IMG/VR virus record: IMGVR_UViG_3300027743_000026
Span: 8,470-72,469 of that record
DNA: 64,000 nucleotides
Direction: 5' to 3' (one strand)
Source: a virus
The notes beneath the pieces are model-generated. The model was given only the letters and a program-made list of their open reading frames with translations, searched no databases and was not told the DNA's origin. The position numbers and the translations under genes were made by a program. Positions 41,072 through 62,445 of this stretch are shown here, in pieces; the first letter of the stretch is position 1, and each line of letters opens with the position of its first letter.

Positions 41072-42499
41072 ATGACCAAGCACATGTATCCTAAGCGTGG
41101 TGACTTCCTCACCAAGGAAGCACCGACCGACCCACAAGTGGCTGCGGAAATCTTGAAGCCGCTGATGACGGAGATCGCTGATCTTACGGCCGCGATCGAG
41201 AAATCGAAAAAGGACGTTGCGGATCAGTACAAGGCGCTCACGAGCCATTACGATGGCGTCAAGGGCGAGAACGAAGAGCTGAAGAAGGCCGTTGCCGAGC
41301 AGACCAAGGTCTACGGTGAGTTGACTGCCAAGCTGCAGGGCCAGGAAGCTGCGCTTGATTTCTGCAAGAAGCAGCTCGACATGCCGCTGATCAAAGGCAA
41401 CAAGGAGCTGGAAGAGAGCGATCGCAAGGCCGCGATCGAGTGTCAGAAGCGCGCGTTCCTGTTCAAGGGCGGTAGCGAAGACGACTTCAAGGAAGATCTC
41501 GACAATCTTGTTGATGTCAAAGCCTACCGCTCAGCGGTGCGCAAGTTGGTGCGCCACGTCGGCATCGAGCCCAAGCGCAAGGTAATTGCCAGCCTGAACG
41601 AGTACGAGCGCAAGGCGTTCGAGGCATCCTCGCTCGACAGCGCGATCTTTGTACCTGAGATGCTCGGCATTGAGTTGAACTGCCTTATCGACTGCGCCGG
41701 CATGACCGACCTCTACGGTCAGGTCAACGTGTCGAAGAGCACTTTCATGTATCCGCAAGTGCTCGATTACGGCGAGATCGGCAAGTATGATTGCGACGCT
41801 AAGTGCGACGCCGAGTACGGACCCGAGGGCAACATCACGTTCAAGTCCGGTAACGTCTCGGACTACCGCGGCGTGTTCTGCTTCCAACGCAAGGTGCTCA
41901 CCGAAGCCAACTACGACCTGTTGAACTTCATGTACACGTCGGTCAGACGCGCGCAGACGATCGCACGCAACCGCGCGCTCATGGTTGGCTCTGGCATCAA
42001 CGAGCCGCTTGGCTGGTTGACCGCGGGCTGCTTCACCAAGCTCAAGACCACAACGACCGACTTCACCCATATCGATTTTCGGTTGATGTACGGCTCAGCT
42101 CCGATCGAATACGGGCCGGTCACCGCGGTGATGCATCAAAACATGTTCGCGAATCTTGCCGCGCGGACCGACGCCAATGGTCGCTTCATCTTTGGCGACG
42201 GTCTCATGACCTACTCACCGAACGACGTGCGCGAGAATATCCGGATCAGCAACTGTCTGCCTGATCCGACCTACGGCCTGACCAAGGGTACGGAGACTGC
42301 GCCGTTCATCACCGGTGACTTCCTCGTCGGCATTGGTTCGTGGGCCTCGGCCTACTACGCTGTGTCGAAGCGCCCGCTGTGGATCGAGCAATGGGAGGGA
42401 CAGTCGACCGCCTGGTGCGTGAAGTACGTGTTCGGTGCCGAGGACGGCGGATTCACCGCTTGTTGCCCGGCCGCGCGCATCATCACGGTTGGTCCGTAA
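41072..42499 (+). CDS. Major capsid protein (HK97 fold with N-terminal delta domain)
   Basis: Coiled-coil N-terminus; G.G..EP.G; D.NGRFIF; position. Confidence 0.9.
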   Translation: MTKHMYPKRGDFLTKEAPTDPQVAAEILKPLMTEIADLTAAIEKSKKDVADQYKALTSHYDGVKGENEELKKAVAEQTKVYGELTAKLQGQEAALDFCKKQLDMPLIKGNKELEESDRKAAIECQKRAFLFKGGSEDDFKEDLDNLVDVKAYRSAVRKLVRHVGIEPKRKVIASLNEYERKAFEASSLDSAIFVPEMLGIELNCLIDCAGMTDLYGQVNVSKSTFMYPQVLDYGEIGKYDCDAKCDAEYGPEGNITFKSGNVSDYRGVFCFQRKVLTEANYDLLNFMYTSVRRAQTIARNRALMVGSGINEPLGWLTAGCFTKLKTTTTDFTHIDFRLMYGSAPIEYGPVTAVMHQNMFANLAARTDANGRFIFGDGLMTYSPNDVRENIRISNCLPDPTYGLTKGTETAPFITGDFLVGIGSWASAYYAVSKRPLWIEQWEGQSTAWCVKYVFGAEDGGFTACCPAARIITVGP

Positions 42500-42538
42500 T
42501 CCTTCCATCCCATCACTCACACAGAAGGATTCACGACC

Positions 42539-42934
42539 GTGAATATCAATGTTGCAAGTCAGAACCAGGGAATGATCGCGTGGACCGGCACGGCAGCTCG
42601 TCCAATCGACATTCGCCACCACGTCCACTTCGCCTTCACGTTCGAGGTGACGGCAGACCTGGCCGCCGATGCCACCTTCAAGGTGCAGGCGGCACCGCCC
42701 AGCGATGCCGATCCGTGTCTCCCCGGCACGTTCTATGACGTGCCCGAGACGCTGACCTGTGCCGGGTGGGGGCAAGTCCCTGACCCGACCACCGGGTTCG
42801 TTATCCCGGCCGGGACCAAGAAGGGTGCGCTCTGTACCGCTGCGCTGCCGTGTCGGCCGGACGCCTTTGTCCAGCTGGTCGGCACCGGGGCGGCGGGCGT
42901 GCTTGGGGTCGCCGTTCTCGGCGGTCCGCGCTGA
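42539..42934 (+). CDS. Probable head decoration protein (paralog 1)
   Basis: Follows the MCP; paralog of the next gene. Confidence 0.6.
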   Translation: MNINVASQNQGMIAWTGTAARPIDIRHHVHFAFTFEVTADLAADATFKVQAAPPSDADPCLPGTFYDVPETLTCAGWGQVPDPTTGFVIPAGTKKGALCTAALPCRPDAFVQLVGTGAAGVLGVAVLGGPR

Positions 42935-43005: not shown

Positions 43006-43425
43006 ATGAATCTCAACACAGCTTCCCAGAACCGAGGTGTTCTGGCGTGGCGGGCAATCACGGCACAGAATCTCAATCCACCGATCGATGTTCGCCAGCA
43101 CGTCAACTTCAGCTTCACGTTCCACGTCGTTGCCGACATTCTTGTGGACGCGGATTTTGAAGTTGTTGCAGCACCGGCGGATCCAGCTAATCCCTGTGTC
43201 CCTTTACTTCCGCAACATCCTGTTGAGGAAGTGATCACCTGTGCTGGGCCTTGGGGAGTTACCCCAAACCCAGAGTCGCATATCGTCATCCCGGCTGGAA
43301 CAAAAGCGGGTGCGCTATGTACGGCGGCGTTGCCGTGCAAGCCTGATGCCTTTGTTCAGTTGGAGCCGGTTTCCGGCGATACCGGCAAGATCGAGGTCGT
43401 CGTTATTCTGAGCGGCCCCAGATAA
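43006..43425 (+). CDS. Probable head decoration protein (paralog 2)
   Basis: Shares ASQN.G..AW, IPAGTK.GALCTAALPC.PDAFVQL and GPR. Confidence 0.6.
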   Translation: MNLNTASQNRGVLAWRAITAQNLNPPIDVRQHVNFSFTFHVVADILVDADFEVVAAPADPANPCVPLLPQHPVEEVITCAGPWGVTPNPESHIVIPAGTKAGALCTAALPCKPDAFVQLEPVSGDTGKIEVVVILSGPR

Positions 43426-43821: not shown

Positions 43822-44114
43822 TCGTTCGCGAAGGCACACCGCCGGCAACAGCTGATGGCGCGTCATTGGGATGCATCATGCTGGTCTCTGGCGGCCACGA
43901 CGATGAAATACAGTGGTTTGAATTCAAAACCAACTATATGTCAACGGCGATATATCGGGTCGAGTGGGAGGTTGAAACCATGTTCGTTGTCATCCCAACG
44001 GAGACAGCGAACTGGTTGATCAAGAGCGGCTACGCGCGTCCGATGACAGTTCCCGAGGCACGCGCATACAACAACAGCCTCGAGAAAGAAGAGAGACCAA
44101 AGGAGACTGCATGA
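43800..44114 (+). CDS. Hypothetical virion-module protein
   Basis: AAGGAG SD. Confidence 0.65.
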   Translation: MAADERLIVREGTPPATADGASLGCIMLVSGGHDDEIQWFEFKTNYMSTAIYRVEWEVETMFVVIPTETANWLIKSGYARPMTVPEARAYNNSLEKEERPKETA

Positions 44115-44194
44115 TCGTGACCCGATGCACACCACCGTGTGCCCCGCAGGCGGCGCAAGCGCTCGCTTCGCCCGGCTGCTTCAAGTGTACGTAA
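44111..44194 (+). CDS. 27-aa Cys-rich micropeptide (MIVTRCTPPCAPQAAQALASPGCFKCT)
   Basis: AAGGAG SD and ATGA overlap. Confidence 0.5.
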   Translation: MIVTRCTPPCAPQAAQALASPGCFKCT

Positions 44195-44259: not shown

Positions 44260-44964
44260 ATGCTGGCTTTGACGATCGACAGCCCGATGCAGTCCGACGG
44301 CTGCGTGACTTGTTGCTGCGAAACAATCTCGCTCAAGCCGGGCGAGACGCAGCCGCTGTATCTCAACTATGCCGGCTGGGCAGCGCCGATTGCGCTGCGT
44401 GGGCTGCATTGCGAGCCGACTGTCACGGTCGAGGAGAAGAAGACCTGTGATGTTATCACGACAGGCAATCTTCCTCCGGTTGCGTCGTCCGATACCGAGT
44501 TCGACGTTACGCTCAATACGCCGCTCACTGACGATCTCAAGACCTTCGTCGTTGATCCTGAAAGCGATGCGTTGACCTTCAAGCCGTTGCTGCTGTACGG
44601 CACGCAGCATGGCAAATTCGACCTCAAGCCAGATGGCACCTTCACCTATACGCCGATGCAGGGCTATGTCGGTCCCGACAATTGCTTCGTCTCAGTCAGC
44701 GACGGGCACAATCAGCCGGTGGTGTTCGAGGTTCTGTTCGGTGTTGGCATCCCCGCGGCTAACGTGGGTTCAACCTGGGATTTGACTGTGGGCAAGCCCA
44801 TCGTCAATCAGCGCCTGTACCTGGTGACCTTGCCGCTGACGGTGTCGCCGGCGGCGAGAACCTGCCAGATCTTCCGGCTCACCGTTCGTCAAGGCGCGCT
44901 CGATTGTGATTGCAACTGCTACTACCACGTCGACTGTGTCGATGTGCGGATCGCGCAATGCTAA
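44260..44964 (+). CDS. Ig-like (Big_9/cadherin-like) virion protein with Cys-rich ends
   Basis: N.PPVA...DPE.D.LTF...HG......DGTFTYTP..GY.G.D. Confidence 0.8.
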   Translation: MLALTIDSPMQSDGCVTCCCETISLKPGETQPLYLNYAGWAAPIALRGLHCEPTVTVEEKKTCDVITTGNLPPVASSDTEFDVTLNTPLTDDLKTFVVDPESDALTFKPLLLYGTQHGKFDLKPDGTFTYTPMQGYVGPDNCFVSVSDGHNQPVVFEVLFGVGIPAANVGSTWDLTVGKPIVNQRLYLVTLPLTVSPAARTCQIFRLTVRQGALDCDCNCYYHVDCVDVRIAQC

Positions 44965-45659
44965 CCTTTGTCGTCGAGCCGCCCAAGGATCGCTTTGCTT
45001 CGCCGTTACCGGTGGGGCACAAGGAGCCGTTGGACTGGTCGACGCTGTTATCGATCGAACTCATCCGGCAGCATACCAAGACCGACGATGTCGCCGGCGT
45101 CTCTGATGAGATGCTGGATCTCTATCGTCGCGCCGCGGTCGAGGCTGCCGAACTCTATACCGGCGCGTTGCTGACCACGCAGATGACTGTCACCGAGCCG
45201 ATCCAGGGACCGTCACGGCCTAAATTCGGCAAGCTGACTTACAAGCACAAGCTCAAGTATCCGGTCGCCGATGGGCTCGTGCATCTCTACGGCAGCCAGA
45301 ACGTTGACGCCAATCATGCCATTCGCATCCCGGCCAATACCCGCACCATCCATGTGCCGATCTGGACCGGTTTCATCGATCTGACGAATTGCTGTGATCC
45401 ATGCGCATCGCATCACCTCAACGTCGATATGATGGCCGCCTACAAGGCCGGTTACAAATGCCCAGACGATGTGCCCAAAGGCATTACGCTCGGCATGTTG
45501 CAGTTTGTCGCTTGGATCCTCGAGCATCCTGGTGACATCTTGCTGACCGTGCGCAACAAGGAAGACAACTCGACCAAAGGATTGATGGGTAGCAACAACA
45601 TCGCGCTGGCGAGTGGTGCGATCGAGACTTGGCGGCAGTACGACCCCGAGGCGTTCTGA
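44958..45659 (+). CDS. Head-tail connector/adaptor
   Basis: LSIE.IR.H..D......AA...AE.YT; Y.AGY; position. Confidence 0.75.
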   Translation: MLTFVVEPPKDRFASPLPVGHKEPLDWSTLLSIELIRQHTKTDDVAGVSDEMLDLYRRAAVEAAELYTGALLTTQMTVTEPIQGPSRPKFGKLTYKHKLKYPVADGLVHLYGSQNVDANHAIRIPANTRTIHVPIWTGFIDLTNCCDPCASHHLNVDMMAAYKAGYKCPDDVPKGITLGMLQFVAWILEHPGDILLTVRNKEDNSTKGLMGSNNIALASGAIETWRQYDPEAF

Positions 45660-48113: not shown

Positions 48114-48116
48114 CCG

Positions 48117-48722
48117 ATGAACGTCCAGTTCGCAAACCCACCGCCGCCGAAACCAGCGGCGGAGAAGGTTCGTTTTCTGCCGGCGCTGGCAGAAGCAATC
48201 ACCGAATGGTTTCCCGAACTCGGCGGACGTGCGCTTGCTGTCAGCAACGCGCATATAACCAAATTGAATGTACCGACGTTGCCGCTAGTGATGGTGGCGT
48301 TCGCGCGCGGTACTGGCGACCAGGCAGCTCAAAGTTACCATCCAAGTTTCAAGCAGGTCGATAAATTCATCATTGAGTTCTGGCTGCAGCCGGAGCGTTA
48401 CAAAAAAGCTAACGGCGCCGAGACACCGTTCTGGAGTTACTACGACTACGAGGCCATTCGCACCAAGCTGCTCTCCAATCTCGGACGCTGGGAGACGCCT
48501 GATGGTGAGCACATCGCCTATCGGTATCTAACCATCGGCGCTGATGAACTTGCTGTCACGCTGTCATTTGGTTTCGACGCCACCAAGAACTTTTGTCCGA
48601 TCGATCCGGCGCGGGGCGAGCCCTTCGCCATCAGTTTTGATTTGTGCCCACCGAAAGGCTGTTGCCCCGAGGTGGAGTGCTTCGATGTCCAGGAGAACGA
48701 TAAATGCGATCCGTGTCCGTAA
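48117..48722 (+). CDS. Probable tail terminator protein
   Basis: Position before the sheath; Cys-rich C-terminus. Confidence 0.6.
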   Translation: MNVQFANPPPPKPAAEKVRFLPALAEAITEWFPELGGRALAVSNAHITKLNVPTLPLVMVAFARGTGDQAAQSYHPSFKQVDKFIIEFWLQPERYKKANGAETPFWSYYDYEAIRTKLLSNLGRWETPDGEHIAYRYLTIGADELAVTLSFGFDATKNFCPIDPARGEPFAISFDLCPPKGCCPEVECFDVQENDKCDPCP

Positions 48723-49102: not shown

Positions 49103-50626
49103 ATGTCGATTGACAGTCTACGAAGCGGCGCGATCGAGATCTGCTTCGATCCCAGCCTCAACGTCTACCCCAACAAGTGTCGGATCCTCATCGAGGGTCA
49201 GATGCTCGATACCGGCACTGCGCCCGACGGCGTGCTGATCAAGATGCCGTCGCTGCGCGACGTCAACGAGCTGTTCGGCGAAGGTTCGGTGATCGCCGAA
49301 GGTCTCAAGACCGCGTTTTTGTGCTGCGGCAACAACGCCCTCGACTTCTATGCGCTCCCTCGCAAGGACGCATCAGTCGGCGCTGTCACCGGGGCGCAAT
49401 ACACCATCACCTTCACCGGCGAAGCCACCACCTACGGTCGCGTCGATATGTATATAGGTGATGGTCGCTGGCGCACGTCGGATCGAGTCGTGGTCGGTAC
49501 TACGGCCGATGAGGTTGCCACCCTCGTGTCGGAGACATTGACACGAGAGCCAGGCTTACCGTTCTCCGTCCTTTCCACTGCTGGTGGGGTCATCACGCTC
49601 CAGGCCAAGAACGGGGGCACTGTTGGTAACTGCATCCAAATTATCTACAATTGGCATGAGCGCCGTGACTACGCGCCAAAGGGTATCGAGTGCGAGATCG
49701 CCCAACTTCGACCGGGTGAAAACACCAGGGTCCAACCTCTCGACTACATCGCTCTGCTAGGTGAGTGCTGCTACTGCTGCATCGGGATGCTCTACGACGA
49801 CACCTACTGGCAGGACGCGATGATCGCGTACATTGCCAACGCCTGGGATTGTTCCAAGCCTCAGTGTTTTGGCCATGGATACACGTACAATTCAGGCACG
49901 CTCGGCGAAATCATGTCGACCGACACGAACTCGGCCGAGGTCAGTCGTATCGCACAGTGCTGCACCGACCCTGGTCTCGGCTGGCTGAAGGTCGCTGCCT
50001 ATGCCGCGCAGTCGTGCTGCCTGGCGGTCGATCATCCGGAGATGAACATCCAGGGGCCGGATTTCGGCGTCCTGCGTTGTGTTCATGTTCCGGAGAGCTG
50101 CTTCCAGTGCTTCACTTACGAAGAGCAGCAAATTCTGCAGGCTACCGGCTTTGTCGTGACCGTGCCTTATCAAGGCGGCACCGGCCATCTGACCTCGCCG
50201 ATGATCGTCAACGACAGCACCAACAACCGCTACGACGACGACATGCGGTTGAACTCGACTTGGTGGGATGTCAGCTCCCGCCGTCTCGCCGCGGTGACTG
50301 CCGATCAGATGGCGCTCGAACTCGGCAAGGTGCTTGGACTCGGACTGTTCACCAAGAACACGACGATTCCTCCGGGCATCCGAGGCACTAACCCCAAGCT
50401 CATTCTCGGGATGATCCGCACTTGGGCGAAAGCTCACATCGGCGTCTTGTTCAGTGAGTTCGACGACCTCGACAACGACATCCAGCTGCGCACCGACTTT
50501 GAGGTCGCTCCGCGGTGTCAAGGTGTCTGCGGCAAGCTGTGGGTGAACTTCATCTATCGGCCGCCGTGCCGCATTCGCAAGATCCACGTCAACGCCCAGC
50601 CGAGACTGCTGGACAACTGCTACTAA
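49103..50626 (+). CDS. Contractile tail sheath protein (Mu gpL-like)
   Basis: LIEGQML..GTA; LFG.GS; ITL.AK..G..GN. Confidence 0.9.
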   Translation: MSIDSLRSGAIEICFDPSLNVYPNKCRILIEGQMLDTGTAPDGVLIKMPSLRDVNELFGEGSVIAEGLKTAFLCCGNNALDFYALPRKDASVGAVTGAQYTITFTGEATTYGRVDMYIGDGRWRTSDRVVVGTTADEVATLVSETLTREPGLPFSVLSTAGGVITLQAKNGGTVGNCIQIIYNWHERRDYAPKGIECEIAQLRPGENTRVQPLDYIALLGECCYCCIGMLYDDTYWQDAMIAYIANAWDCSKPQCFGHGYTYNSGTLGEIMSTDTNSAEVSRIAQCCTDPGLGWLKVAAYAAQSCCLAVDHPEMNIQGPDFGVLRCVHVPESCFQCFTYEEQQILQATGFVVTVPYQGGTGHLTSPMIVNDSTNNRYDDDMRLNSTWWDVSSRRLAAVTADQMALELGKVLGLGLFTKNTTIPPGIRGTNPKLILGMIRTWAKAHIGVLFSEFDDLDNDIQLRTDFEVAPRCQGVCGKLWVNFIYRPPCRIRKIHVNAQPRLLDNCY

Positions 50627-51368: not shown

Positions 51369-51376
51369 TCACCACG

Positions 51377-51402
51377 GGGAGCCTTCGGGCTCCTCAATTT
51401 CC
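51377..51402 (+). terminator. UUCG hairpin, terminator-like
   Basis: ggagcc-ttcg-ggctcc followed by a T-rich tract. Confidence 0.55.
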
Positions 51403-51426
51403 ATTTGGGGTTAGGAGACAACGGCG

Positions 51427-51891
51427 ATGACCTGCACAAACCAAGTGGGCGTCAAGAATATCTTGCTCACTTTCAGAGACTGCGACACCGACGCCGTGTA
51501 CGGTCCGATCTCGCATCATCTATCCAGCGAAGATCTGCCGACGTGGCGACTATGCAATTACAACAACGAGCCGCTTCCCTGGGGCTACGTTAAACGTCAG
51601 CCAACCAATCCGGAGGTCGAGATCAAGGTGATCCGCGACCTCCGCATCCCGCTCTCGATGTACCAGGGCTGCAGCGACGTCACCCTGCAGGTCGAGTATT
51701 ACAACGGCCTGGTTTACTCGGCCGCGCGCGGCACCGGTACCGGTGATGAGAAGAGCGACACCCACGAAGTGACGATGACCATCGTGTTCCGGATCATCGA
51801 CGAAATGCTGCCCGAGGGTACGCTCGAGCCCAACGCGGATGAGATCGCGGCAACCTTCCCGGTGCCGTACGTTCCGCCAGGAGTAACCTAA
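51427..51891 (+). CDS. Tail tube protein
   Basis: Size and position between sheath and chaperone. Confidence 0.7.
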   Translation: MTCTNQVGVKNILLTFRDCDTDAVYGPISHHLSSEDLPTWRLCNYNNEPLPWGYVKRQPTNPEVEIKVIRDLRIPLSMYQGCSDVTLQVEYYNGLVYSAARGTGTGDEKSDTHEVTMTIVFRIIDEMLPEGTLEPNADEIAATFPVPYVPPGVT

Positions 51892-51894
51892 GTC

Positions 51895-52545
51895 ATGGCG
51901 GAAGTTACGAAACTCGAGCCGCCGAAGCAGCCCGAAAAGATTCCGATCTCCTTCCAACTAGGAGATCGGATGATCGACGGCGCCGTGGTGAAGCCTGTGA
52001 CGTTTGCTGCGTACATGAGCTTCATCACGGAGGCACAAAACCTGACCTCTCCCAAAACATGGGAAGGGAAGATTCGTCGTGTGCGGATGGCCAAGCAGGT
52101 CACTTACTTCATGGCGACCGCACCGATTCAACTCTCTATGGCGGATGTACTGCGTATGCCGATTCAAGCTGCGCGCGAAATCGCGGCTAAGCTCGATGAG
52201 AATGAGGGCAAGCCGGGTAGGATTTCGCGTCCTGGTGACGGCATCGACAAGGCCATCATCTACGAACTCGGAACGCCGATCTCGACCGGCCAGGGCAAGT
52301 CGCCGATCAGCGAGCTTGAGTTCATGGCCAAGACCTATGGTGACGTTGAAGATGTGCTAGCCGCATCGACCTCGTTTCACCAGGGTCTGCAACTGATCGA
52401 GAGCGTTGCCAAGCCGCTCGGCAGCAGTCTGACTTTGCTGCCATCTTGGGCGGTGAATCTGATTACGTTCGCCGACGGCTTCACTATCGTTCGTGAAGTG
52501 CTACCGCATTTTCTCGGGTCGCCAACCGAGTCGCAGAGCGAGTAG
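51895..52545 (+). CDS. Tail assembly chaperone (probable -1 frameshift extension to 52691)
   Basis: Precedes the TMP; CAT TTT near its end; open -1 frame fills the gap. Confidence 0.75.
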   Translation: MAEVTKLEPPKQPEKIPISFQLGDRMIDGAVVKPVTFAAYMSFITEAQNLTSPKTWEGKIRRVRMAKQVTYFMATAPIQLSMADVLRMPIQAAREIAAKLDENEGKPGRISRPGDGIDKAIIYELGTPISTGQGKSPISELEFMAKTYGDVEDVLAASTSFHQGLQLIESVAKPLGSSLTLLPSWAVNLITFADGFTIVREVLPHFLGSPTESQSE

Positions 52546-52698
52546 ACGAATTCCGCTATTACTGTGCGGCGGCTGGCGATCCGAGACCTCTATCCATCCC
52601 CGTGTTGACCGTTCGGGTCAACGGCTTCCTCAAGGTACACCGGCAGGAGATGCGCAATCGCATCGTTCTTGCTGGCGGCAAAGCAAAATAGGTCAGCC

Positions 52699-55600
52699 GT
52701 GGCAAGTTTTGTTGAGCAGGCAACTCTTGTTGTCAAAGATCAGTCGACTGCGCAGATCAACAAGATCAACGCGGCACTGAAAAAGCTGTTTGCCACGGCG
52801 AACTCACTCAAGTCGATCAAGGTTGACATCAAAGTCAACGACCGCGGAATCCAAAAGGCCATCACGGACATCAATCGGCTCAAGTCCGCTATGCGGGGCT
52901 TGAGCAGCACGACGGTCAACATCAAAGCTAACGCAGCTGGTCTGTCGAGTGCGATGCGACAGATCCAGCAGCTACGTGCCGCGGCGGCAAAACCAATCAC
53001 GGTTAATACGGCAGCAGCAGCCCGCCAAGCGGCGCGGACGCCGCCGCCTAGGCCAGCTGCAGCACCACCGGCACCACCAGCAAGGCGTCCACCTGGCGCA
53101 GCACCGGCGCCACTTGGTGGGCGTGGTGGTGGCGGTGGCTATATCCGCGGTCCGATTTCGGTCACTGGCGCCGTCGCGGTTACGAATATGGACGCGATGG
53201 CGGGTGCGATAGCACGCGCCACAGGACGCGCGGCAAAGGAAGGCTACAGTCAGGTTGACACTGCCGACACCAAGATGGCGTTGCAGCAGTACAGCAAGCC
53301 GACCCAAGACGCGATCAATCTCGCCGTTGACCAATTGCAACAGGACGCGCGGGATCGCAGAAATCCACAAACGGGTCAAGGAGGTGTGTACTGGAATCGC
53401 GCGCAACAGAAGGAATTACTTGTTGAGTCTATGAACACTGCCGGCGGTGATGTCGCCGGCGCTTCTTGGTTGGTGAAACAAGCGGAATCCTTGGCCAAGA
53501 TTGGCCATGGCATGGGGCAGACTCCCCAACAGGCGTACGAAGGCGCGCTGAGCTTCATCAAAGCCGGCGAACAGATGGGGCGCTTCCGCGACGTCGCGGG
53601 CAAGTTCGACTACGGCAGGGCTGAAGAATATTTCAACACGATGCGTCAGGCGGCCATACAGGTCGGTCGAGAATTTACCGGCCAGCGATGGCTCACGACT
53701 ATCGGTACGGCACAACAAGCGAAATACGGCCTCGACCCCAGAGGCATGATGACGATGGCGCTCGGCATGGAGGAGTCGGGTAGCAAGTTCGCCACCGGCA
53801 TTAATGAGCTGATCAAGCAGTTCACTGGCGCGCGTCTCGATAAAGGCAAGCTCGCGAATCTTGAGGCGCTCGGTCTGGTCGACAAAGGCATGTTGGATTC
53901 AAAGGGTAAGCCCTTTGCAAAAACCAAGGTTCCGACCCCGAAGACGCTCATGGACGTCATGAGCAAGGGCGCGACCGATGAGGGAGAGCTGCGCAGGAAT
54001 ATCCACGGTTGGGTGCAGGACCACGTCAAGCCAGCGATGCAAAAGCTGGGCTTGGATATCAATAAACAGGCTGACCTCACTCAGTTTGCCGCAAAGTTTG
54101 CCGGAAAGACTACTAGCGGCAAAGGTACTGACGCTCTCGTTAATCTGATCCAGCGTTCGCAGGAATGGGAGCAAGATATAAACCGCGCGCTGCTGCGCAG
54201 AGGTGATATCGAGGCTGGAGAAGCGGCGACGGAGGGATCTGGCCGAATTGCCGGTCAAGCGCTCAAGAATCAAATTCAGTCCACGCTCGGTGAAACCATC
54301 AACAAGATGGAGACCACATTCGTACCGCTCGCCTCGGGCATGGCCGAGAAGCTCAGCAAAGCGTCCGAGGCCATCAGCAAAGGCGAAGCACCGGACGCGC
54401 CTACGATGTTGGCCGCGGCAACTGCGGCAGCAGCAGCTGTCCCAGCGATAAGCCTGATGGGCATGGCGCAGGGCATACGCGCGTCGATGAGTGAAGACCC
54501 GGCGGTGTCATCGTTAGGTTCGGCTGGCACTTCGCTGAATGCAGCCGGTAGCGCGCTGACTTTTGCCGCGGGTGCGTTGGCGGCGGCAGCAGGCGTGAAA
54601 CTGCCTACTGATATGACGCCAGGTGGACCTGATAGTAAGAGGCCGGGTACGAGGCCTGGCGCGCCTAAACCAACGATGCCAGAAGCGCCGAAGGTGCCAC
54701 CTGGCGGACCAACTGGCGGACCCGCATCACGAATTGGAACTGCCCTGAGGTGGTTGTTGCGTCCGGCGGCGCTCGCCGTAGGTGCTGTGACCGGTGTCAC
54801 GGCGGCGACAATCTTAGCGCTGTCGACGCGACCGGTGGGTGGCAAGAGCAACCAACCTGAGTTGGAGCGGCTCAATGATTCTTTGGAGGATTACAATAAA
54901 ATTGCTCGACGGTACACGGAAGCGGAGGCCGAGAAGAAGAAGCTTACTGAAGGTGTGACAAGTGGAGAAATTAAACCGGATCAATACGAGGCAACGCGGG
55001 CCAAAATCAATGCCCTCAATGCTGAGCTACTTGGTCTGGAACAGCGAGCGGCAGCGGCTCGCAAGATCATCGAGGGAGAAGGCAAAACCTTGATGGAGCG
55101 GGCTGCTGAACAGGCGAAGAAAGACGCAGCGGAAGCTGAAGCCGATAAGAAAAAGAAGGCCACCGCCGAAAAGGCTCGGATGACAGAGCTAGAGAGACAA
55201 GCCGCTGAGCGGCGCGCAGCAGCAAAAAAGCGGGGCGAAGAGCAACCTGACCCCAACAAGGTGTATCCAGAGCCGAAGCCGAGCACGCCATACGTTCCCA
55301 AACCGCCGCTACCGCCCGGTGAGGTGGTGCCGGTGAAAGTTGTCGACCAAGAGGGAGGACCAAGAGCAGATGGTAAAGTTCTTGGTCCACCGCCGGGAGG
55401 CGTAACGCCGGCGCAAGCCGCAACATCTCAGATCGACCTCGCTGGTCAGCTCACATCGGCTGCGCCCGCCATCGGCGCGGCAATGGCCGAGCCCATACTC
55501 GCGGCGTCTTTGAGCATCGGAGAAGCGATCGCTGCGCCGATACAGACGGCGATGGAAACTATTGGGACAGAGCTTGGGACACAGCTTGGGGCCTCAATCA

Positions 55601-55872
55601 CCGAGCCGATCGCAACGGCCGGTGCGTCATTTGCTGCAGCGTTCGGAGCGGTGGGTGCTCAGGTCACCGCCGCTGGTGCCGCGCTTGCCGCCGGCGGCAC
55701 ACAAGCCGCCGCGGCGATTTCTGCTGGAGCGTCGGCTGCAGGCAGCGCCTATGGCGCAGCCGCAGCCGCAAAAATATCGGCCGCGGTCGCCAACGTCTCC
55801 ATTAACGTGAATCATACCGGCAGCGCCGGTGGCGCCGGTGGCAGTCCCGGCCCGGCGAAAGAAGCCAACTAA
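52699..55872 (+). CDS. Tape measure protein
   Basis: Longest Ala-rich helical ORF; N-terminal L...DQ.T..I.KI. Confidence 0.9.
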   Translation: MASFVEQATLVVKDQSTAQINKINAALKKLFATANSLKSIKVDIKVNDRGIQKAITDINRLKSAMRGLSSTTVNIKANAAGLSSAMRQIQQLRAAAAKPITVNTAAAARQAARTPPPRPAAAPPAPPARRPPGAAPAPLGGRGGGGGYIRGPISVTGAVAVTNMDAMAGAIARATGRAAKEGYSQVDTADTKMALQQYSKPTQDAINLAVDQLQQDARDRRNPQTGQGGVYWNRAQQKELLVESMNTAGGDVAGASWLVKQAESLAKIGHGMGQTPQQAYEGALSFIKAGEQMGRFRDVAGKFDYGRAEEYFNTMRQAAIQVGREFTGQRWLTTIGTAQQAKYGLDPRGMMTMALGMEESGSKFATGINELIKQFTGARLDKGKLANLEALGLVDKGMLDSKGKPFAKTKVPTPKTLMDVMSKGATDEGELRRNIHGWVQDHVKPAMQKLGLDINKQADLTQFAAKFAGKTTSGKGTDALVNLIQRSQEWEQDINRALLRRGDIEAGEAATEGSGRIAGQALKNQIQSTLGETINKMETTFVPLASGMAEKLSKASEAISKGEAPDAPTMLAAATAAAAAVPAISLMGMAQGIRASMSEDPAVSSLGSAGTSLNAAGSALTFAAGALAAAAGVKLPTDMTPGGPDSKRPGTRPGAPKPTMPEAPKVPPGGPTGGPASRIGTALRWLLRPAALAVGAVTGVTAATILALSTRPVGGKSNQPELERLNDSLEDYNKIARRYTEAEAEKKKLTEGVTSGEIKPDQYEATRAKINALNAELLGLEQRAAAARKIIEGEGKTLMERAAEQAKKDAAEAEADKKKKATAEKARMTELERQAAERRAAAKKRGEEQPDPNKVYPEPKPSTPYVPKPPLPPGEVVPVKVVDQEGGPRADGKVLGPPPGGVTPAQAATSQIDLAGQLTSAAPAIGAAMAEPILAASLSIGEAIAAPIQTAMETIGTELGTQLGASITEPIATAGASFAAAFGAVGAQVTAAGAALAAGGTQAAAAISAGASAAGSAYGAAAAAKISAAVANVSINVNHTGSAGGAGGSPGPAKEAN

Positions 55873-57141
55873 ATGTCGGAACACAACTGTGCCATCGGCA
55901 AAGACTATGTCCCGGCTTCGTTCAAAGGTGTCGGCTTCCAATGCACTGAGGTCGACGTCGAAGGCGGACGCCGCGGTGCCGAGGGTGAATTCCCGTTCGG
56001 CGAAATCACCGCGTATGCCGATCTCGGCCGCAAGATTCAAGTGTACCATCTCACGGCCGTGTTTCGTGCCGATGACCACGTCACCGACAGCCACTCGTTG
56101 TTTCAGGCCTGCCAGTCGCCTGGTCCCGGCATCCTTGTGCATCCGACCCGCGGCACTGTTCTCGCCGCCTGCCGCGCAATCAAGCTCAAGGACAATCTAG
56201 AAGAGGCTGGCGAGAGCACGGCGGAATTAGAGTTCGTCGAGGCCAACGGCATCGGCGTCAGCGGTCCGACCTCGGGCCCCGGCTTCGCCTCGCTCTTTGG
56301 TATTATCATCAGCCCGCTTAACGACCTGTCGCGGGAGATGTTCCTGGCGGAATACACGCCCAGGCTGGTGGCGCAGCCGTGGCGAGCTGATGTCATCAAC
56401 CGCGCCCAGATCCTGGTCGCTGCCGTCGCTCAGGTGACGATTCACGCTCTGACTGTGCAATCATCAACCAATGAGTGGCGCGCTGCGCTAGCCATGGAGG
56501 ATGTAGCCAAGGACGACGGGCTCGCCTCCGACCCAGAGAAAGTCGAGGAGGCGCTGTTCACCGGCTTCAAGTTCATCTCCAGTAAGATCCAGAACGCCGA
56601 CAGCCGCTACAAGATCTTTCGCAGTCTGGTGAACTTCGCCTCGTTCACGTCATACCATCCCGTGCACGTTGCGCAGACCAGCGAAGAGGCGGTGCTCAGC
56701 CGCCATCGTCTTCTCGGTGCCATCGGTATGGCGGAAGCGGCGATGGGCCGGAAGTATCGGCACCTCGGCGAGGGCCTGGCGACGATGGAGGAAGTCCTCA
56801 AGGTGTTCGAGGACGAGGCCAGGATCGCCTACGACGAATGCAACAACGGGCTCTTCCTGGAGATCAGGCGCTACGCGGTCGAGTTCAGCAAGATGATGCA
56901 CGACATGACCTACCGGCTGCCGGGTCGGGTCATTGTCGATTATAGCGGTGGGGTCCACCCGCTGGTCGCGTCGTACGTCCTCTACAAGGACGCCAAGCGT
57001 CATCGTGAGCTTGAGCAGACCAACATCGTCGACGCCAACGGGCGCTTCCAACAACTTGTGGTCGGGTTGACGCCAGGCGGTCCAGCCTCCGGCGGACAGG
57101 TCCGCATTTTCCCGATCCAACCTGCTTACATCCCGCGATGA
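55873..57141 (+). CDS. Mu gpN-like DNA circularization protein
   Basis: ASFKGV.F...GGRR....EFP......DLGR...GPG.LVHP..G. Confidence 0.88.
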   Translation: MSEHNCAIGKDYVPASFKGVGFQCTEVDVEGGRRGAEGEFPFGEITAYADLGRKIQVYHLTAVFRADDHVTDSHSLFQACQSPGPGILVHPTRGTVLAACRAIKLKDNLEEAGESTAELEFVEANGIGVSGPTSGPGFASLFGIIISPLNDLSREMFLAEYTPRLVAQPWRADVINRAQILVAAVAQVTIHALTVQSSTNEWRAALAMEDVAKDDGLASDPEKVEEALFTGFKFISSKIQNADSRYKIFRSLVNFASFTSYHPVHVAQTSEEAVLSRHRLLGAIGMAEAAMGRKYRHLGEGLATMEEVLKVFEDEARIAYDECNNGLFLEIRRYAVEFSKMMHDMTYRLPGRVIVDYSGGVHPLVASYVLYKDAKRHRELEQTNIVDANGRFQQLVVGLTPGGPASGGQVRIFPIQPAYIPR

Positions 57142-58508
57142 AGCCAGTTGTGATTACGTGCGGCGGCGGTCCGATCGAAACCTGGACCGAGATGACGCTC
57201 AACCGCAAGAAAGAGAACCTTACCGGCCAGCTATCGGTCACCATTTTTGCCGGAGCCGCGCCGAGCAAGCCCATATTGGTGGCGGCAAAAGCCGGCGCTC
57301 CCATTCAAGTCTACATCGCAGGTCAGCTGGCATTCACCGGCTACGTTGATGCGCGCACCGGCACCGGCGCGCACACCGGCGACAAGGGAACTGCAGACAG
57401 TTCTGGCGGACAGGAGACCGAAGGCACGAGCGGCGAGGGTGGCGGCTCGATGAGCGTCAACATCGGCCCGAATGAATACACGGTCAAAATCGCGGCCCGC
57501 GGTAAGACCAGGCGATTGGTCGACAGCTCACATCAGCATCCGACCACCAACATGCTGAAGCCGACCACGAAGGACGTGGTCCAGAAGTTGGTGGAGCCGT
57601 TCAAGACCCAGGTCGAATGGCTTGGCCAGGTGATCAAGCTCGACAAGGTGCGTTTTCGCGACGGCGCCCGCGTGATTGACGAACTCAACCGGGTGCAGAA
57701 CGAAAATTGCTACTTCATGTACGAGACCCGCGACGGGAAATTACGGGTCACGGATGGTGTCGGTCCTGGAGGCGGTGGCGATGCGCTCATCCTTGGCTAC
57801 AACATTTTACGTTTTTCTGCTGAGCAGTCAGACGATAAAGCCAAGAGCAAGGTCAAAGCCAAGGGCCAACGCACCGAGAAGAAAAAGTGGGGCGAGGAAG
57901 CCCTGCTTAAAACCTACAAAGAGGTAAAGGACGCCTGGGTCAAAGACTTCGTGCCGCACACCGTGCAGCATAACGGTGACGCCACCGACATGGAGCTGGA
58001 GCGCCGCGCGCGGTTCGAAATGAACAAGCGCAGCTCCGAAAGCAAGAAGATCACAATCGAGGTGTTTCATGTGCAGTCGCCGTCTGGCGCGCCGTGGGAC
58101 ATCGGGAATGTTCACTATGTTGAGGTGCCACCCGAGGGCATCTTCGACATGTTCGAGTGCATCGATCTGACCTACCACGTCGATGCCCACAAGGAACTTA
58201 AGACCACGCTGATCCTCTCACCACCACCATCCAGTGGAGGCGGCGGCAGCAGTCCTGGTGGCAGCGGTGTCGGCTACGGGTTGGACAAGATCGATTTCAA
58301 TACCGGCCGCGCGCGTCGCCTGCAGGCCGGGATCGAGTTGAAGCCTGATGAATACCCGCAGCCGTGGTGTCCGCCGATGCTCAGCGAGTTGCCGCAGATG
58401 ACGCTCGAGGACGCAATCGCCAAAGGCATCACCGAGGATTACGAAAAGGATGACAAGAACGAGCGCGATGCCCCGCTGACGCTGCCACCTTGGTTTGAGG
58501 ATCAATGA
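57138..58508 (+). CDS. Baseplate hub protein (Mu gp44/gpP-like)
   Basis: TGYVD; RGKT..LVDSS; L.LG.NI. Confidence 0.85.
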   Translation: MKPVVITCGGGPIETWTEMTLNRKKENLTGQLSVTIFAGAAPSKPILVAAKAGAPIQVYIAGQLAFTGYVDARTGTGAHTGDKGTADSSGGQETEGTSGEGGGSMSVNIGPNEYTVKIAARGKTRRLVDSSHQHPTTNMLKPTTKDVVQKLVEPFKTQVEWLGQVIKLDKVRFRDGARVIDELNRVQNENCYFMYETRDGKLRVTDGVGPGGGGDALILGYNILRFSAEQSDDKAKSKVKAKGQRTEKKKWGEEALLKTYKEVKDAWVKDFVPHTVQHNGDATDMELERRARFEMNKRSSESKKITIEVFHVQSPSGAPWDIGNVHYVEVPPEGIFDMFECIDLTYHVDAHKELKTTLILSPPPSSGGGGSSPGGSGVGYGLDKIDFNTGRARRLQAGIELKPDEYPQPWCPPMLSELPQMTLEDAIAKGITEDYEKDDKNERDAPLTLPPWFEDQ

Positions 58509-58509
58509 A

Positions 58510-59292
58510 ATGACGTCGTACACGCATTATCGCGAGTCCAAGCGCGACCAGCAGGATCACATCGAGCGCCACGTCTGGGGAGAGCAGAAATATGTGAAGG
58601 GTGCCGGCTCGATTATCAAGGTGCGCGGCACCGATACCAAGGACGAGGAGACCGCGGTCACTGTGGTCGGCTCCGGCACCTCGTTCAATCTTAAAAAGGA
58701 TCACAACGCCGAGGTGTTCGAACTCTCCGGCGGAGCCGACACCACACTCAAATTGGCGATCCTGACCATCCCGCGCGACAAGCAGCGCAGATGGAAGGAG
58801 GAGCACGGTGGTGTGCAGAACCCGCTCGATGACGAGTGGGCGCTCGATTTCGGCAAGGAGAAAGCGCACATCACCAAAAAGGAATTCGCGGTTGGCAAGG
58901 ACGGTGAGTTCGAGATCACCAAAGACAAGAACGTGTATTTCCGCCTCGATGGCGACAAGAAGTTCATCATCGACGGTGAGTTGATCGTCAACAAGCTGAT
59001 CAAGACGCCGCAGATCGTGCAGGGCAAGGAGAAGCCCCCGGGCTTCCAGGGCAACGAGCAAGCCGAGGCCAGCGATGACGACAGCAGCGGTGGCGGCGGT
59101 GGTGGCGGCGGTGCGGGCGTGGCTTCGGCTTCGTTCCAAGCGGAAGCGCCGCGCGATGTGATGGGCGACGTCGTCGAAGCTATCCGCGCGCTGAAGAACG
59201 CGCTGTCCTGGTTGCCAGAAAACCTACCGGCCGAGGTGCGCGCGGAGTTCACCAGTCTGCAGACAGCGATAGGCGAGGCCACCCATGGATGA
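58510..59292 (+). CDS. Baseplate spike (Mu gp45-like) with C-terminal extension
   Basis: Position; beta-rich middle; Gly linker and helical tail. Confidence 0.65.
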   Translation: MTSYTHYRESKRDQQDHIERHVWGEQKYVKGAGSIIKVRGTDTKDEETAVTVVGSGTSFNLKKDHNAEVFELSGGADTTLKLAILTIPRDKQRRWKEEHGGVQNPLDDEWALDFGKEKAHITKKEFAVGKDGEFEITKDKNVYFRLDGDKKFIIDGELIVNKLIKTPQIVQGKEKPPGFQGNEQAEASDDDSSGGGGGGGGAGVASASFQAEAPRDVMGDVVEAIRALKNALSWLPENLPAEVRAEFTSLQTAIGEATHG

Positions 59293-59875
59293 TGCCGCCT
59301 GCCTAGATAAAGACGTAGGTCGTCGTCGCATTTTCTGGACCACCAGGCCGGAAGCCTGTGGCGCCTACGATATGTGCGGCCATGCGTGCTCGATCCCCGG
59401 CCTTGAGTACGTCGATAGGCTAGACCTTCCATACCCGGACTCGAGTCCGCCAGGCACTGCGGATATTGGCTATCGCACGATATCGAACGACGAGTGGGTG
59501 CGCGGGCTGATCCTTAACATCATCAACACTCGTGCGCGCAACGACCGGCCTTGCCCGAGCCCGGCCTCGGTGTACGGTCATTGGTCAGAATCCTTCTTTC
59601 GTGAAGGTGAGTGGCTCTACATCGGCTCGACGCTGTGGAACGCCGCGGAAAAGCTATACGCCCGTTGTCAAGACGCGGTGAAGGCGATCGAGGCGGCCAT
59701 CCGCGCTGACATGGGCAAGCTGATTGCCCAAGGCATTGTCCAATCGGTCGCGGTGCACGCGGTCTATCACCGACAAAGTCACGTCGATGTCATGATCGAC
59801 ACCGTGACGTCGACCGGTCGAACCCGCATCGATCTATCTGGTGCGTTCGTTTCCGAGTCCTGGATATGGCGCTAA
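59285..59875 (+). CDS. Baseplate wedge protein (Mu gp46-like)
   Basis: T.AR...GHW..SF....GS.LW. Confidence 0.8.
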   Translation: MDDAACLDKDVGRRRIFWTTRPEACGAYDMCGHACSIPGLEYVDRLDLPYPDSSPPGTADIGYRTISNDEWVRGLILNIINTRARNDRPCPSPASVYGHWSESFFREGEWLYIGSTLWNAAEKLYARCQDAVKAIEAAIRADMGKLIAQGIVQSVAVHAVYHRQSHVDVMIDTVTSTGRTRIDLSGAFVSESWIWR

Positions 59876-59879
59876 ACCA

Positions 59880-61109
59880 ATGGCATGCGTCATTCTCCGA
59901 CCCGAACCGCAGGTGCTGTTCGATCGCCTGCGAAATTCGTTTTCCAACACCGTTCTCGGTGGTGGAAAAGTCATCCCTGAATCCAATGAATGGTACGTCA
60001 TTGCCAATGACTACGCCGCGGCCGAACAGTTTTACGCGGTGGCCGATCAGATGTGGCGGGAGCGCAATCCCGAGACGGCGTGTTGCGAAAATCTTTACAT
60101 CATGGCGGCTCAAAATGGTGTGTTTCCACGGCCACCGTCACACGCCGAGGGCTACGCCAAGCTGACCGGCGTGCCCCATACTCCAGTGCCGGCCTACTTC
60201 GAGATCAGCACAACGCTCGGCATATTTGTTTCCGTCGGCTCGATCCCAATTGAGTTGTCGCAAGAAGGTGAGGTCATTGTTCGCATTCGGGCGATGACAC
60301 CGGGTTCGCAGATGAATGCGACCGGCACCGTCACCGAAGGTACGCTGACCACCTCGGCGCCGAACATCAACGCGGCTGTGCAGATTTGCGGGGGCCAATT
60401 CTGCGGTGGAGCGGAAGAGGAAGACTGCGAGACGTTCCGCAAGCGCTACCTCAACCGGCTCGCCTACCACCCGCGCGCCACCATGGCGTGGATCAAAGAA
60501 AAATTTCTCGAGTTCCCGTGCGCGACCAGAGTGTGCATCCGCGAGGGTTCGTGCTGCCGCTGCAATCCGGACTGTGAGTGCAGCCAGGATTGCGGTTGTA
60601 AAAATTGCGGAAACAACATGAATTTTTACGTGTTGTTCGACACCGCGTTTCCTTGCGGCATTCCTCCGCCCAACGTGGTCGAGGACATCACGCGCTGGAT
60701 GTTCGGCGAGCATCAAGGCTATGGCGAGGGCCAGGTCGAGATCGGCGTGTGTGGCCAGGTTTTCAATATCAAGCCGCTGCCGGTCAACGTCATCATCGAC
60801 ATCGCCGGCTGTCCGAGCGTGGCGCAGAAGCAGCTGATTGATAACGACGTCCGTGCGCTATTCCAGCGTATTTGCCCATCGATACCACTGTGCGCCAAGC
60901 AGATCGATTTGATCATCGCCGCTGTGATCGGCGCTGAGATCAATGCCGCAGCCCGGTTCGAGATACCAGGCTACGAGGAGAAGAGGCCGCCCTATCCGCG
61001 TGAGCTGGTCTACATCAATGAGGGTTGCTGTATCGAGCCGGAGTGCGACGTCCTGCCGTGCATCAACGAGGTGATCTTTAACCTGCCGCAGACCGGGCTG
61101 CCCTGCTGA
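59880..61109 (+). CDS. Baseplate J-like protein (Mu gp47)
   Basis: P.TA..E.L...A...G..PRP...A.G; GGAE.E....FR.R.L. Confidence 0.88.
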   Translation: MACVILRPEPQVLFDRLRNSFSNTVLGGGKVIPESNEWYVIANDYAAAEQFYAVADQMWRERNPETACCENLYIMAAQNGVFPRPPSHAEGYAKLTGVPHTPVPAYFEISTTLGIFVSVGSIPIELSQEGEVIVRIRAMTPGSQMNATGTVTEGTLTTSAPNINAAVQICGGQFCGGAEEEDCETFRKRYLNRLAYHPRATMAWIKEKFLEFPCATRVCIREGSCCRCNPDCECSQDCGCKNCGNNMNFYVLFDTAFPCGIPPPNVVEDITRWMFGEHQGYGEGQVEIGVCGQVFNIKPLPVNVIIDIAGCPSVAQKQLIDNDVRALFQRICPSIPLCAKQIDLIIAAVIGAEINAAARFEIPGYEEKRPPYPRELVYINEGCCIEPECDVLPCINEVIFNLPQTGLPC

Positions 61110-62050
61110 TGACCGACACCTATGAGTACATGGAGCGGCTCGGTATCGAGAATGTGCTGACCGCCGATGGTTGCCAGGACGTCAAGCATAACGATTGGTA
61201 CTACTGCTGCGCACCGCCGCTGTGCGGAAATGACCTCTGCTGCACATTCGTCGATTTCTTCCAGCTGCTGCCATCCGGGCCGCTATGGGATCACTGGAAG
61301 CGCAAGGCGATCGAGTACTTCCAGGTCAGCGACGATGTTTCGAAGTGTCCGCTGGTCAAGGACCCGGCCTGCCCGTCGCTGATCCTGCATTCGATTTATA
61401 CCGTGCTGAAGCTGCGGTCCTACGTCCACGGTCCGCTGTGGGAGGCATTGCGCGAGTCCAATCCCTATACCGCCATCACAACCATCGACTATCACCTGGA
61501 GCGGCTCAAGTGGGAAGACTGCTATCTGCAGCATTGCCGCGCCGTTCTGCTCGGCGACATCACGCCGTACGAAATATGGACCGAGTGCGGGCCGGTGTTC
61601 TGTCCGCCAGGGTTTTCCGATGAGCTTCTCTGTGCGGTCAAGCGCAACATCGCGATCGCGCTGACCAGGGCGCAGATGGGCGTGATCAAGAACCTGTGCG
61701 GGCTGAACTGGGTGATCGAACCGCTCGGGGCCAAGCTCACTGCGAGGTACACACCCGCGCCGAACCACGATCTGCCGCTCAATCCGCTTGAGCCTTGCGA
61801 TTCTCCGTGCGACCGCAGCGAACTCGCATTCGAGATTTGCTACACGCAGGATTGGATCTACGGCTGCGATGATGGCGACGTCTGCACAACGCAAGAACTG
61901 CCACCAAAGATCCAGGCTTACTGGGATCGGGCCTGCGATACCGCTGCTGGACTCCCGGCGCGGATTTGGCCTGGGGTTCTCGCAGCGGAATGTATCGTGC
62001 GCTCGATGCTGCCGTCGAACTGCCCTAACAACATTTTCAGGTGTTGCTGA
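61109..62050 (+). CDS. Baseplate wedge protein (Mu gp48-like), very Cys-rich
   Basis: LLP.G.LW; L.E..P.TA..T. Confidence 0.75.
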   Translation: MTDTYEYMERLGIENVLTADGCQDVKHNDWYYCCAPPLCGNDLCCTFVDFFQLLPSGPLWDHWKRKAIEYFQVSDDVSKCPLVKDPACPSLILHSIYTVLKLRSYVHGPLWEALRESNPYTAITTIDYHLERLKWEDCYLQHCRAVLLGDITPYEIWTECGPVFCPPGFSDELLCAVKRNIAIALTRAQMGVIKNLCGLNWVIEPLGAKLTARYTPAPNHDLPLNPLEPCDSPCDRSELAFEICYTQDWIYGCDDGDVCTTQELPPKIQAYWDRACDTAAGLPARIWPGVLAAECIVRSMLPSNCPNNIFRCC

Positions 62051-62445
62051 TGTCCAGCATTCTCCCAAGTCTCGAGACGGGTGGGGCGGTCATCTATCGC
62101 GATGCCGACGGCGTGGCGCTCAATCCAGTCGACGTCACCAACGCCTATTCACCGCCGCCTACTTTCATCTCGAGTTGTCCGCTCACGGCGCTGCCGACGA
62201 CCTGCGAAGCGCGGATCGAGCCGGGGCAGATCAATGCCATCGTCTCGGAGCTGATCGCGCTTGCCGAGTGCTTCGATCCGGACGGACCGTGGGACTGCGC
62301 CTCAGTACAGAACCTGTGCACCGCGTTCACCGTGTGGAAGGTGGAGGGTGTCACAGTCAGTGTGCAAGGGCCGGAATTGGCTGGTGACGGCAGCGCCGGG
62401 GATCCGATCCGAATCGTCGAGATCGACGGCGGGGAATACGTCTGA
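62050..62445 (+). CDS. Tail-fibre attachment-like protein
   Basis: NAI.SE...L; position. Confidence 0.55.
   Translation: MSSILPSLETGGAVIYRDADGVALNPVDVTNAYSPPPTFISSCPLTALPTTCEARIEPGQINAIVSELIALAECFDPDGPWDCASVQNLCTAFTVWKVEGVTVSVQGPELAGDGSAGDPIRIVEIDGGEYV

Follow-up and report, generated by a model that had tools for sequence, protein, structure and literature searches.

A cysteine-rich structural module in an uncultured myophage related to the disulfide-crosslinked phage Milano

Introduction

A virion crosslinked by disulfide bonds is not a new idea, as it was published in 2023-2024 for Agrobacterium phage Milano (genus Schmittlotzvirus). Here Milano and its relatives are compared with the phage represented by a 64,000-nucleotide stretch of viral DNA, referred to as the window, which spans bases 8470-72469 of IMG/VR record IMGVR_UViG_3300027743_000026. 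Our subject is the structural module of the window, in which cysteine (Cys) is abundant in some virion proteins and missing from others. An earlier reading of the DNA, made without database searches and called the sequence-only reading below, had proposed that Cys is concentrated in the outer shell of the particle, which would be crosslinked by disulfides or stapled by metal, and that sheath contraction might need a redox trigger.

According to PMC10811340, every component of the Milano tail is disulfide-crosslinked, and the bonds were mapped by cryo-electron microscopy and mass spectrometry. The sheath bonds are Cys14:Cys244, Cys47:Cys182 and Cys216:Cys327, with Cys467:Cys501 detected by mass spectrometry. 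When contraction was attempted in vitro, urea or guanidine alone failed, and guanidine with dithiothreitol (DTT) worked. In the contracted sheath, Cys47:Cys182 is the sole broken bond, and the disulfide network of the baseplate must largely come apart before firing. The same paper describes an iron ion bound to the spike via His residues. The Milano tube contains the bonds Cys3:Cys19 and Cys43:Cys82.

Bonds of the Milano capsid, cement, linker, collar and neck are mapped in PMC10491603, which lists Cys 6, 10 and 26 as disulfide Cys of LP2 and reports that DTT removes the resistance of the particle to sonication and to 60 °C. Phage 7-7-1 (PDB 9hz7, 9rku and 9rkt), a flagellotropic phage of Agrobacterium, has the same capsid bond classes as Milano, and its linking protein carries C6, C10, C23 and C26 (PMC12796354). 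Assembly-templated disulfides that stiffen a lattice also occur in a siphovirus tail tube with inter-ring disulfides, reported in a paper that mentions Bacteroides phage PD491P1 as disulfide-stabilised (PMC13576161); the principle is the same, and the protein families are unrelated to those treated here.

The Milano papers suggest that the disulfide armour is an adaptation to Agrobacterium or to flagella riding, and they raise the question of how a crosslinked tail is released during infection. In the literature searched, nothing was found on a wider distribution of Milano-type Cys, nor any structural or redox work on the Synechococcus phages Yong-L2-223 (OM868081) and Ssp-JY38 (PP438428), the closest cultured relatives of the window phage.

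Results

A structural module of the Milano lineage

The module of the window was compared by BLAST with Milano gp6-gp31 and with Yong-L2-223, and the resulting ortholog table is syntenic gene for gene from terminase to short tail fibre. The shared order comprises capsid, cement, collar, neck, terminator, sheath, tube, chaperone, tape measure, centrepiece, hub, spike, wedges 1-3 and short fibre, with structural-protein identities of 24-52% to Milano and 26-64% to Yong-L2-223. The closest phage sheaths are those of Yong-L2-223 and Ssp-JY38, both at 57.8% identity, followed by those of the Agrobacterium phages Milano (45.7%), OLIVR4 (45.1%) and 7-7-1 (44.7%). The record of 72,469 bp has an overlap of ~131 bp between its ends and a CheckV completeness of 100%, and it represents a complete uncultured ~72-kb myophage.

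Judged from sequence, the window phage belongs to the wider lineage of Milano, 7-7-1, OLIVR4, Yong-L2-223 and Ssp-JY38. A genus is delimited at ~70% nucleotide similarity. Because protein identities of 24-52% to Milano seem incompatible with nucleotide identity at the genus level, we place the window phage outside Schmittlotzvirus.

We hold with high confidence, from these comparisons and by analogy with Milano, that the window carries the structural module of a Milano-lineage myophage, and that the Cys excess of its lattice proteins would be the footprint of a Milano-type disulfide network between and within subunits. Here 'lattice' refers to the parts that would be stitched together, namely capsid, cement, linker, collar, neck, terminator, sheath, tube, wedges and fibre anchor.

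Cys-rich and Cys-free proteins

Cys were counted by translating the open reading frames (ORFs) of 41,000-63,400 in the window, and the background was taken from 106 greedy ORFs of the whole genome (430 Cys in 22,899 aa, 1.88%). The tail sheath (49103..50626, + strand), the ortholog of Milano gp20 (PDB 8fop, E 7e-139), has 23 Cys in 507 aa. Baseplate wedge 2 (59841..61109, +), the gp29 ortholog with matches to Pfam Baseplate_J and PHROG 6, has 26, in 422 aa when read from GTG 59841 and in 409 aa when read from ATG 59880, the likely true start. Wedge 3 (gp48-like; 61109..62050, +), the gp30 ortholog (PDB 8fqc, E 6e-41), has 24 in 313 aa. The binomial tail probabilities of the excess are 1.3e-4 for the sheath, 2e-7 for wedge 2 and 1e-8 for wedge 3. 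The Ig-like collar protein (44260..44964, +), the gp13 ortholog (PDB 8fwc, E 7e-27) with a Big_9 domain, has 13 Cys in 234 aa.

At the other extreme, the tape measure protein (52669..55872, +) has no Cys in 1067 aa, for which the probability is 1.6e-9 at genome background, and its orthologs are likewise free of Cys in Milano (0/778 aa) and Yong-L2-223 (0/850 aa). Cys is also absent from the tape-measure chaperone (51895..52545, +; 216 aa, 34% identity to Milano gp22), from the central spike (58495..59292, +; 265 aa), which is the gp27 ortholog with 36% identity over the N-terminal part, and from the distal fibre or receptor-binding protein (62445..63395, +; 316 aa). The Milano counts are 0 for the tape measure, 1 for the chaperone and 1 for the spike.

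When lattice proteins are pooled, they contain 139 Cys in 3197 aa (4.35%), as against 26 in 4841 aa (0.54%) for the rest of the structural module; the Fisher probability of 2e-32 is indicative only, as the grouping was chosen after the counts were known. Milano partitioned likewise shows the same split, with 88 Cys in 2749 aa (3.2%) for the lattice and 15 in 3221 aa (0.47%) for the others, and the lattice proteins of Yong-L2-223 contain 116 in 2845 aa (4.1%). Cys density is thus higher in the window than in Milano, as is seen in the sheath (23 vs 16), wedge 2 (26 vs 17), wedge 3 (24 vs 14), collar (13 vs 7) and terminator (7 vs 2). The Yong-L2-223 counts are similar to those of the window, at 20, 21, 25, 11 and 5 in the same order.

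The hand counts of the sequence-only reading for the sheath, wedge 2, wedge 3 and collar were reproduced by translation, as were the zero counts of tape measure, spike, fibre and chaperone. Its CCYCC and three further CC pairs in the sheath are also there, the first Cys of each CC pair being residue 74, 222, 225, 286 or 305. Its 12 capsid Cys are right when the protein is read from ATG 41072 (13 from GTG 41027), and the TACCP that it placed at the very end of the capsid protein lies 10 residues before the C-terminus. The proposed concentration of Cys in the outer shell needs two qualifications: the inner tube has 4 Cys, and the Cys-free fibre is preceded by an anchor ORF with 5.

Could the excess be an artefact of mis-called frames, or a neutral product of codon and GC bias? 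One frame does invite the suspicion. The ORF 50746-51414, with 16 Cys, is probably a spurious frame rather than a gene, as the overlapping Cys-free frame 50691-51368 is better conserved (62% vs 46% identity in relatives). For the Cys-rich genes counted above, however, homologs are strong and GC by codon position is normal, and Cys-free and Cys-rich genes adjoin at the same GC, which is flat at 0.58-0.62 across the structural region. We accordingly rejected an alternative genetic code, mis-called frames and biased composition as causes of the excess. Since no columns of the family are better conserved than those of Cys, as described below, conservation already refutes such an origin, to which we assign next to no probability.

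Conservation of the mapped disulfide Cys

Three-way MAFFT alignments were made of window, Milano and Yong-L2-223 proteins. In tail and baseplate, 31 of the 35 mapped Milano disulfide Cys align to Cys; in neck and capsid, counting proteins with an ortholog only, 26 of 27 do so. Because overall protein identity is just 24-52%, Cys are conserved far better than average residues. Lack of conservation in homologs had been named beforehand as a possible refutation of the disulfide proposal, and the Cys proved to be among the most constrained residues.

In the tail, the mapped Cys are kept at 4/4 in the tube, 6/8 in the sheath, 2/2 in the centrepiece, 5/6 in wedge 1, 7/8 in wedge 2 and 7/7 in wedge 3. 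The tube (51427..51891, +), the gp21 ortholog at 49% identity, has its 4 Cys (Cys3, 19, 43 and 82) at positions identical to Milano. Cys6 and Cys323 of the baseplate centrepiece (55873..57141, +; 5 Cys), the Mu N-like gp25 ortholog with a DNA_circ_N domain, correspond to Milano Cys5 and Cys318. Wedge 1 (59285..59875, +; 6 Cys), the gp28 ortholog with a weak GP46 Pfam match, lost Cys41. In wedge 2 the eighth Cys is shifted by one residue, as Milano Cys367 aligns to Gly395, which Cys396 and Cys397 adjoin.

In neck and head, 7/7 are kept in the collar, 9/9 in the capsid, 4/4 in each cement paralog, 2/3 in neck 1 and 1/1 in the terminator. The major capsid protein (41072..42499, +; 475 aa), the gp9 ortholog at 52% identity with PHROG and Pfam capsid matches, aligns Cys to all 10 of the 10 Cys of Milano gp9, including the 9 listed in PMC10491603. 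Its neighbours are two minor capsid (cement) proteins in tandem, 54% identical to each other, where Milano and Yong-L2-223 have a single copy. Paralog a (42539..42934, +), the gp10 ortholog, has 4 Cys, conserved as Cys60, 74, 99 and 105; paralog b (43006..43425, +) has 4 Cys as well and keeps all of the gp10 disulfide Cys, at 64, 79, 105 and 111. Capsid disulfides reported for 7-7-1 (PMC12796354) use positions that are conserved in the window capsid and cement. Neck 1, the head-to-tail connector (44910..45659, +; 6 Cys), is the gp14 ortholog at 36% identity, in which Milano Cys117 and Cys136 are conserved and Cys120 is replaced by His168. In the tube terminator (48117..48722, +; 7 Cys), the gp18 ortholog at 32% identity, Cys160 corresponds to Milano Cys156, the partner of tube Cys3 in Milano. 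Where synteny with Milano would place its 38-aa LP2, directly upstream of the collar gene, an LP2-like ORF of 27 aa (44111..44194, +) has 4 Cys at 6, 10, 23 and 26 and a weak tblastn match to Milano gp128 (E 0.04).

The sheath was followed further. Its AlphaFold2 model has a predicted local distance difference test score (pLDDT) of 86 and matches the contracted Milano sheath 8foy in Foldseek with template modelling (TM) scores of 0.91/0.93. Among 24 sheaths with identities down to 24%, seven columns are invariant and four of these are Cys14, 222, 250 and 333. Cys14 and Cys250 correspond to Milano Cys14:Cys244, and Cys222 and Cys333 to Cys216:Cys327, the bonds that survive contraction. In 48 Cys-rich sheath homologs, the columns of Cys222, 250 and 333 are Cys in 92-96% and that of Cys14 in 60%, the latter becoming 99% in 71 re-aligned Cys-rich sheaths; in 71 Cys-poor homologs, all four columns are Cys in ≤1%.

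Absence of the sheath lock and additional sheath Cys

In the window sheath, Lys47 and Arg187 stand where Milano has Cys47 and Cys182. Lys and Arg are found in Yong-L2-223 as well, and Ssp-JY38 also lacks both Cys. Only 2 of the 48 Cys-rich representatives (4%) and 2 of the 71 (3%) have the pair, and the others lack both partners. The sheath-level contraction lock of Milano is absent in the window phage, as far as the alignments tell.

Conversely, the window sheath has 11 Cys that Milano lacks, and most of them appear or disappear in pairs across homologs. Co-occurrence was expressed as phi, which ignores shared ancestry, in 71 Cys-rich sheath homologs filtered to <90% identity. Phi is 1.00 for 75-306 and for 286-336, 0.95 for 223-255, 0.91 for 74-225 and for 226-305, and 0.88 for 177-287. 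A known pair, 472-506 (Milano Cys467:Cys501, mass spectrometry), was recovered with 0.89. Another known pair, Cys14:Cys244, gives only 0.49, because both of its columns are nearly invariant. Cys177, 287, 476, 489 and 197 are specific to the window lineage when compared with Yong-L2-223 and Ssp-JY38. Some of the predicted intrachain pairs may already stand in the supplementary disulfide table of the Milano papers.

These patterns bear on metal stapling, which the sequence-only reading had offered beside disulfides and by which some or all of the extra Cys, such as CCYCC in the sheath and CC and CxC in collar and wedge 2, would bind Zn, Fe or Cu between subunits. Clustered Cys do exist, the sheath having five CC pairs, and collar and wedge 2 having CxC and CC motifs, and the Milano spike does bind iron, though via His according to PMC10811340. 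Yet paired CxxC, as a metal site would have it, is rare: each lattice protein has 0-3, and capsid, cement, tube, wedge 1 and wedge 3 have none at all. Across homologs the additional sheath Cys are present or missing two at a time, as disulfide partners would be, and the structures of Milano and 7-7-1 show disulfide bonds at the homologous positions. The window spike lacks even the HxH of an iron site, Milano's HVH motif being absent. Metal stapling is thus unsupported, and we regard it as highly improbable.

Distribution of Cys-rich sheaths

A full HMMER scan, run over 1.84 billion representatives, yielded 933 matches at E ≤ 1e-3, and the best 150 of the 933 were examined, 108 of them full length. 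In this sample, near relatives of the sheath have 7-21 Cys and most of the more distant ones 0-6, with a few distant Cys-rich ones; the 23 Cys of the window sheath are the highest number seen. The statement of the sequence-only reading that related structural proteins are usually Cys-poor thus holds for the sheath, the protein tested, as regards most of its more distant homologs.

A search of IMG/VR with the sheath alignment gave 67 related loci, and a degenerate DNA pattern of the motif WDCxxPQCFGH, run over genome contigs, gave two contigs of metagenome-assembled genomes (MAGs). All of the full-length sheaths from these loci (55/55) have 11-23 Cys. Sorted by identity to the window sheath, those at 87-90% have 22-23, those at 63-72% have 18-21, and those at 43-57% have 11-20. 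The number thus rises towards the window lineage. By this sequence survey, the Cys trait extends across a broad environmental clade, with cyanophages among its members.

Two of the loci lie in bacterial bins. A Milano-like sheath with 16 Cys and 43% identity to that of the window (L082) is located on a contig of 577 kb from a MAG with the label Bartonella sp.; this locus may be a prophage. Another sheath (L081) is on a phage-sized contig of 76 kb that was binned as Saccharibacteria, probably a binning artefact.

Other genes of the module

The baseplate hub (57138..58508, +; 4 Cys) is the gp26 ortholog at 44% identity and has Pfam Gp44-like and GpP-like domains. The spike has a diverged C-terminal extension of ~90 extra residues with a Gly run. 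Searches for the Milano tailspike gp124, of which BLAST found no ortholog, and for the garland proteins gp125-127 gave nothing significant.

Unlike in Milano, the anchor domain of the short tail fibre stands alone as a separate ORF (62041..62445, +; 134 aa, 5 Cys). It aligns with the N-terminus of Milano gp31, and its Cys46, 55 and 86 correspond to gp31 Cys29, 38 and 67. Its stop overlaps the start of the distal fibre gene as ATGA; the distal fibre has no Milano or Yong-L2-223 homolog by BLAST and no Pfam match. The two ORFs resemble an adaptor module combined with an exchangeable part for receptor binding. The anchor domain occurs twice in the genome, the second time as the N-terminus of a 392-aa protein at genome positions 1431-2609, outside the window, and the three gp31 Cys are present in both.

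Between the sheath and tube genes, a Cys-free protein of 225 aa (50691-51368, +) consists of about nine Pro/Gly-rich repeats resembling RPDNSLPG. It is confined to the relatives at 87-90% sheath identity (62% identity in L004/L006, 35% in L005/L012), is absent from Milano and Yong-L2-223, and has no PHROG match.

In the neck module, the gp17-like gene and that of the terminator are separated by the gene of a lysin-like protein of 533 aa (46512-48113, +), whereas the lysin of Milano and Yong-L2-223 comes after the fibres. The 533-aa protein has Amidase_3, PG_binding_1 and a C-terminal domain resembling the 'L-alanyl-D-glutamate peptidase' of Yong-L2-223, and may be a two-domain lysin that is associated with the virion or has been relocated.

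An ORF of 84 aa with 5 Cys (37757-38011, +), close to the portal region on its upstream side, shows a weak, below-cut-off match to the CXXCXGXG zinc-finger domain of DnaJ.

Discussion

The window phage is a new, more Cys-dense relative of Milano, and the disulfide phenomenon itself is already known. The hardened, disulfide-crosslinked virion foreseen by the sequence-only reading gains support from homology to Milano and from the conservation of most mapped Cys. We envisage that in the reducing cytoplasm the lattice subunits would keep their thiols free while folding and assembling, and that assembly would put partner Cys side by side across subunit interfaces, where the pairs would oxidise spontaneously after lysis. 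The particle would end up covalently stitched and able to withstand mechanical and thermal stress, while tape measure, chaperone, spike and distal fibre would stay outside the lattice and remain free of Cys.

Thioredoxin, Erv1/ALR, glutaredoxin and DsbA, the only redox families searched for, gave no match in the whole genome. Their absence would suit an alternative in which the Cys stay mostly reduced and would be used to sense redox conditions, to form short-lived intermediates of assembly or to attach to thiols on the host surface, with no stable network; so would the unpaired Cys197 of the sheath. Milano, however, is crosslinked without a known phage oxidase. Moreover, most mapped bonds keep both partners, and Cys47 and Cys182 were lost together; this joint keeping and losing of partners is what selection on pairs, rather than on single thiols, would predict. 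We consider mostly reduced thiols quite improbable, and retain a Milano-type disulfide network as the explanation.

Several points weigh against that explanation. Four of the 35 tail Cys and one of the 27 neck and capsid Cys mapped in Milano are not conserved, and no ortholog of LP1 (Milano gp16) was found in BLAST searches. The partners proposed for the 11 extra sheath Cys come from co-occurrence alone, which shared ancestry can inflate. Cys197, unique to the window genome among all aligned sequences, is a singleton, and the sheath total of 23 is odd. The phage is known from a metagenomic record alone.

As to the redox trigger for contraction, the part of the proposal that concerned the sheath did not survive the comparison, as Cys47:Cys182 is missing; a trigger at the baseplate is plausible. 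Centrepiece Cys323 and wedge-2 Cys16, which correspond to Milano Cys318:Cys3, are both conserved, and by analogy with Milano the conserved baseplate bonds would have to break before firing. Whether tail contraction in the window phage needs reduction is evenly balanced in our estimation. If there is a redox gate, it is more likely to be at the baseplate than in the sheath, because the sheath lacks Cys47:Cys182.

Taken jointly, the comparisons allow a broader reading, which we put forward tentatively and to which, as a whole, we give slightly less than an even chance. The armour would be ancestral to a broad clade of ~65-76-kb myophages that includes cyanophages, rather than an adaptation to Agrobacterium or flagella. 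Its core bonds would be near-universal, the sheath lock would be a late add-on of the Agrobacterium branch, and the window lineage would have added about five covarying Cys pairs. The sheath could then contract without reduction, with any redox gate confined to the baseplate.

What is gained by the comparison is that Milano-type Cys occur well beyond Agrobacterium phages, and that an ancient, near-invariant core of bonds is separated from a clade-specific contraction lock. This separation bears on how a Milano-type tail is released during infection, and the cultured cyanophage Yong-L2-223 offers a system where contraction without the sheath lock could be examined.

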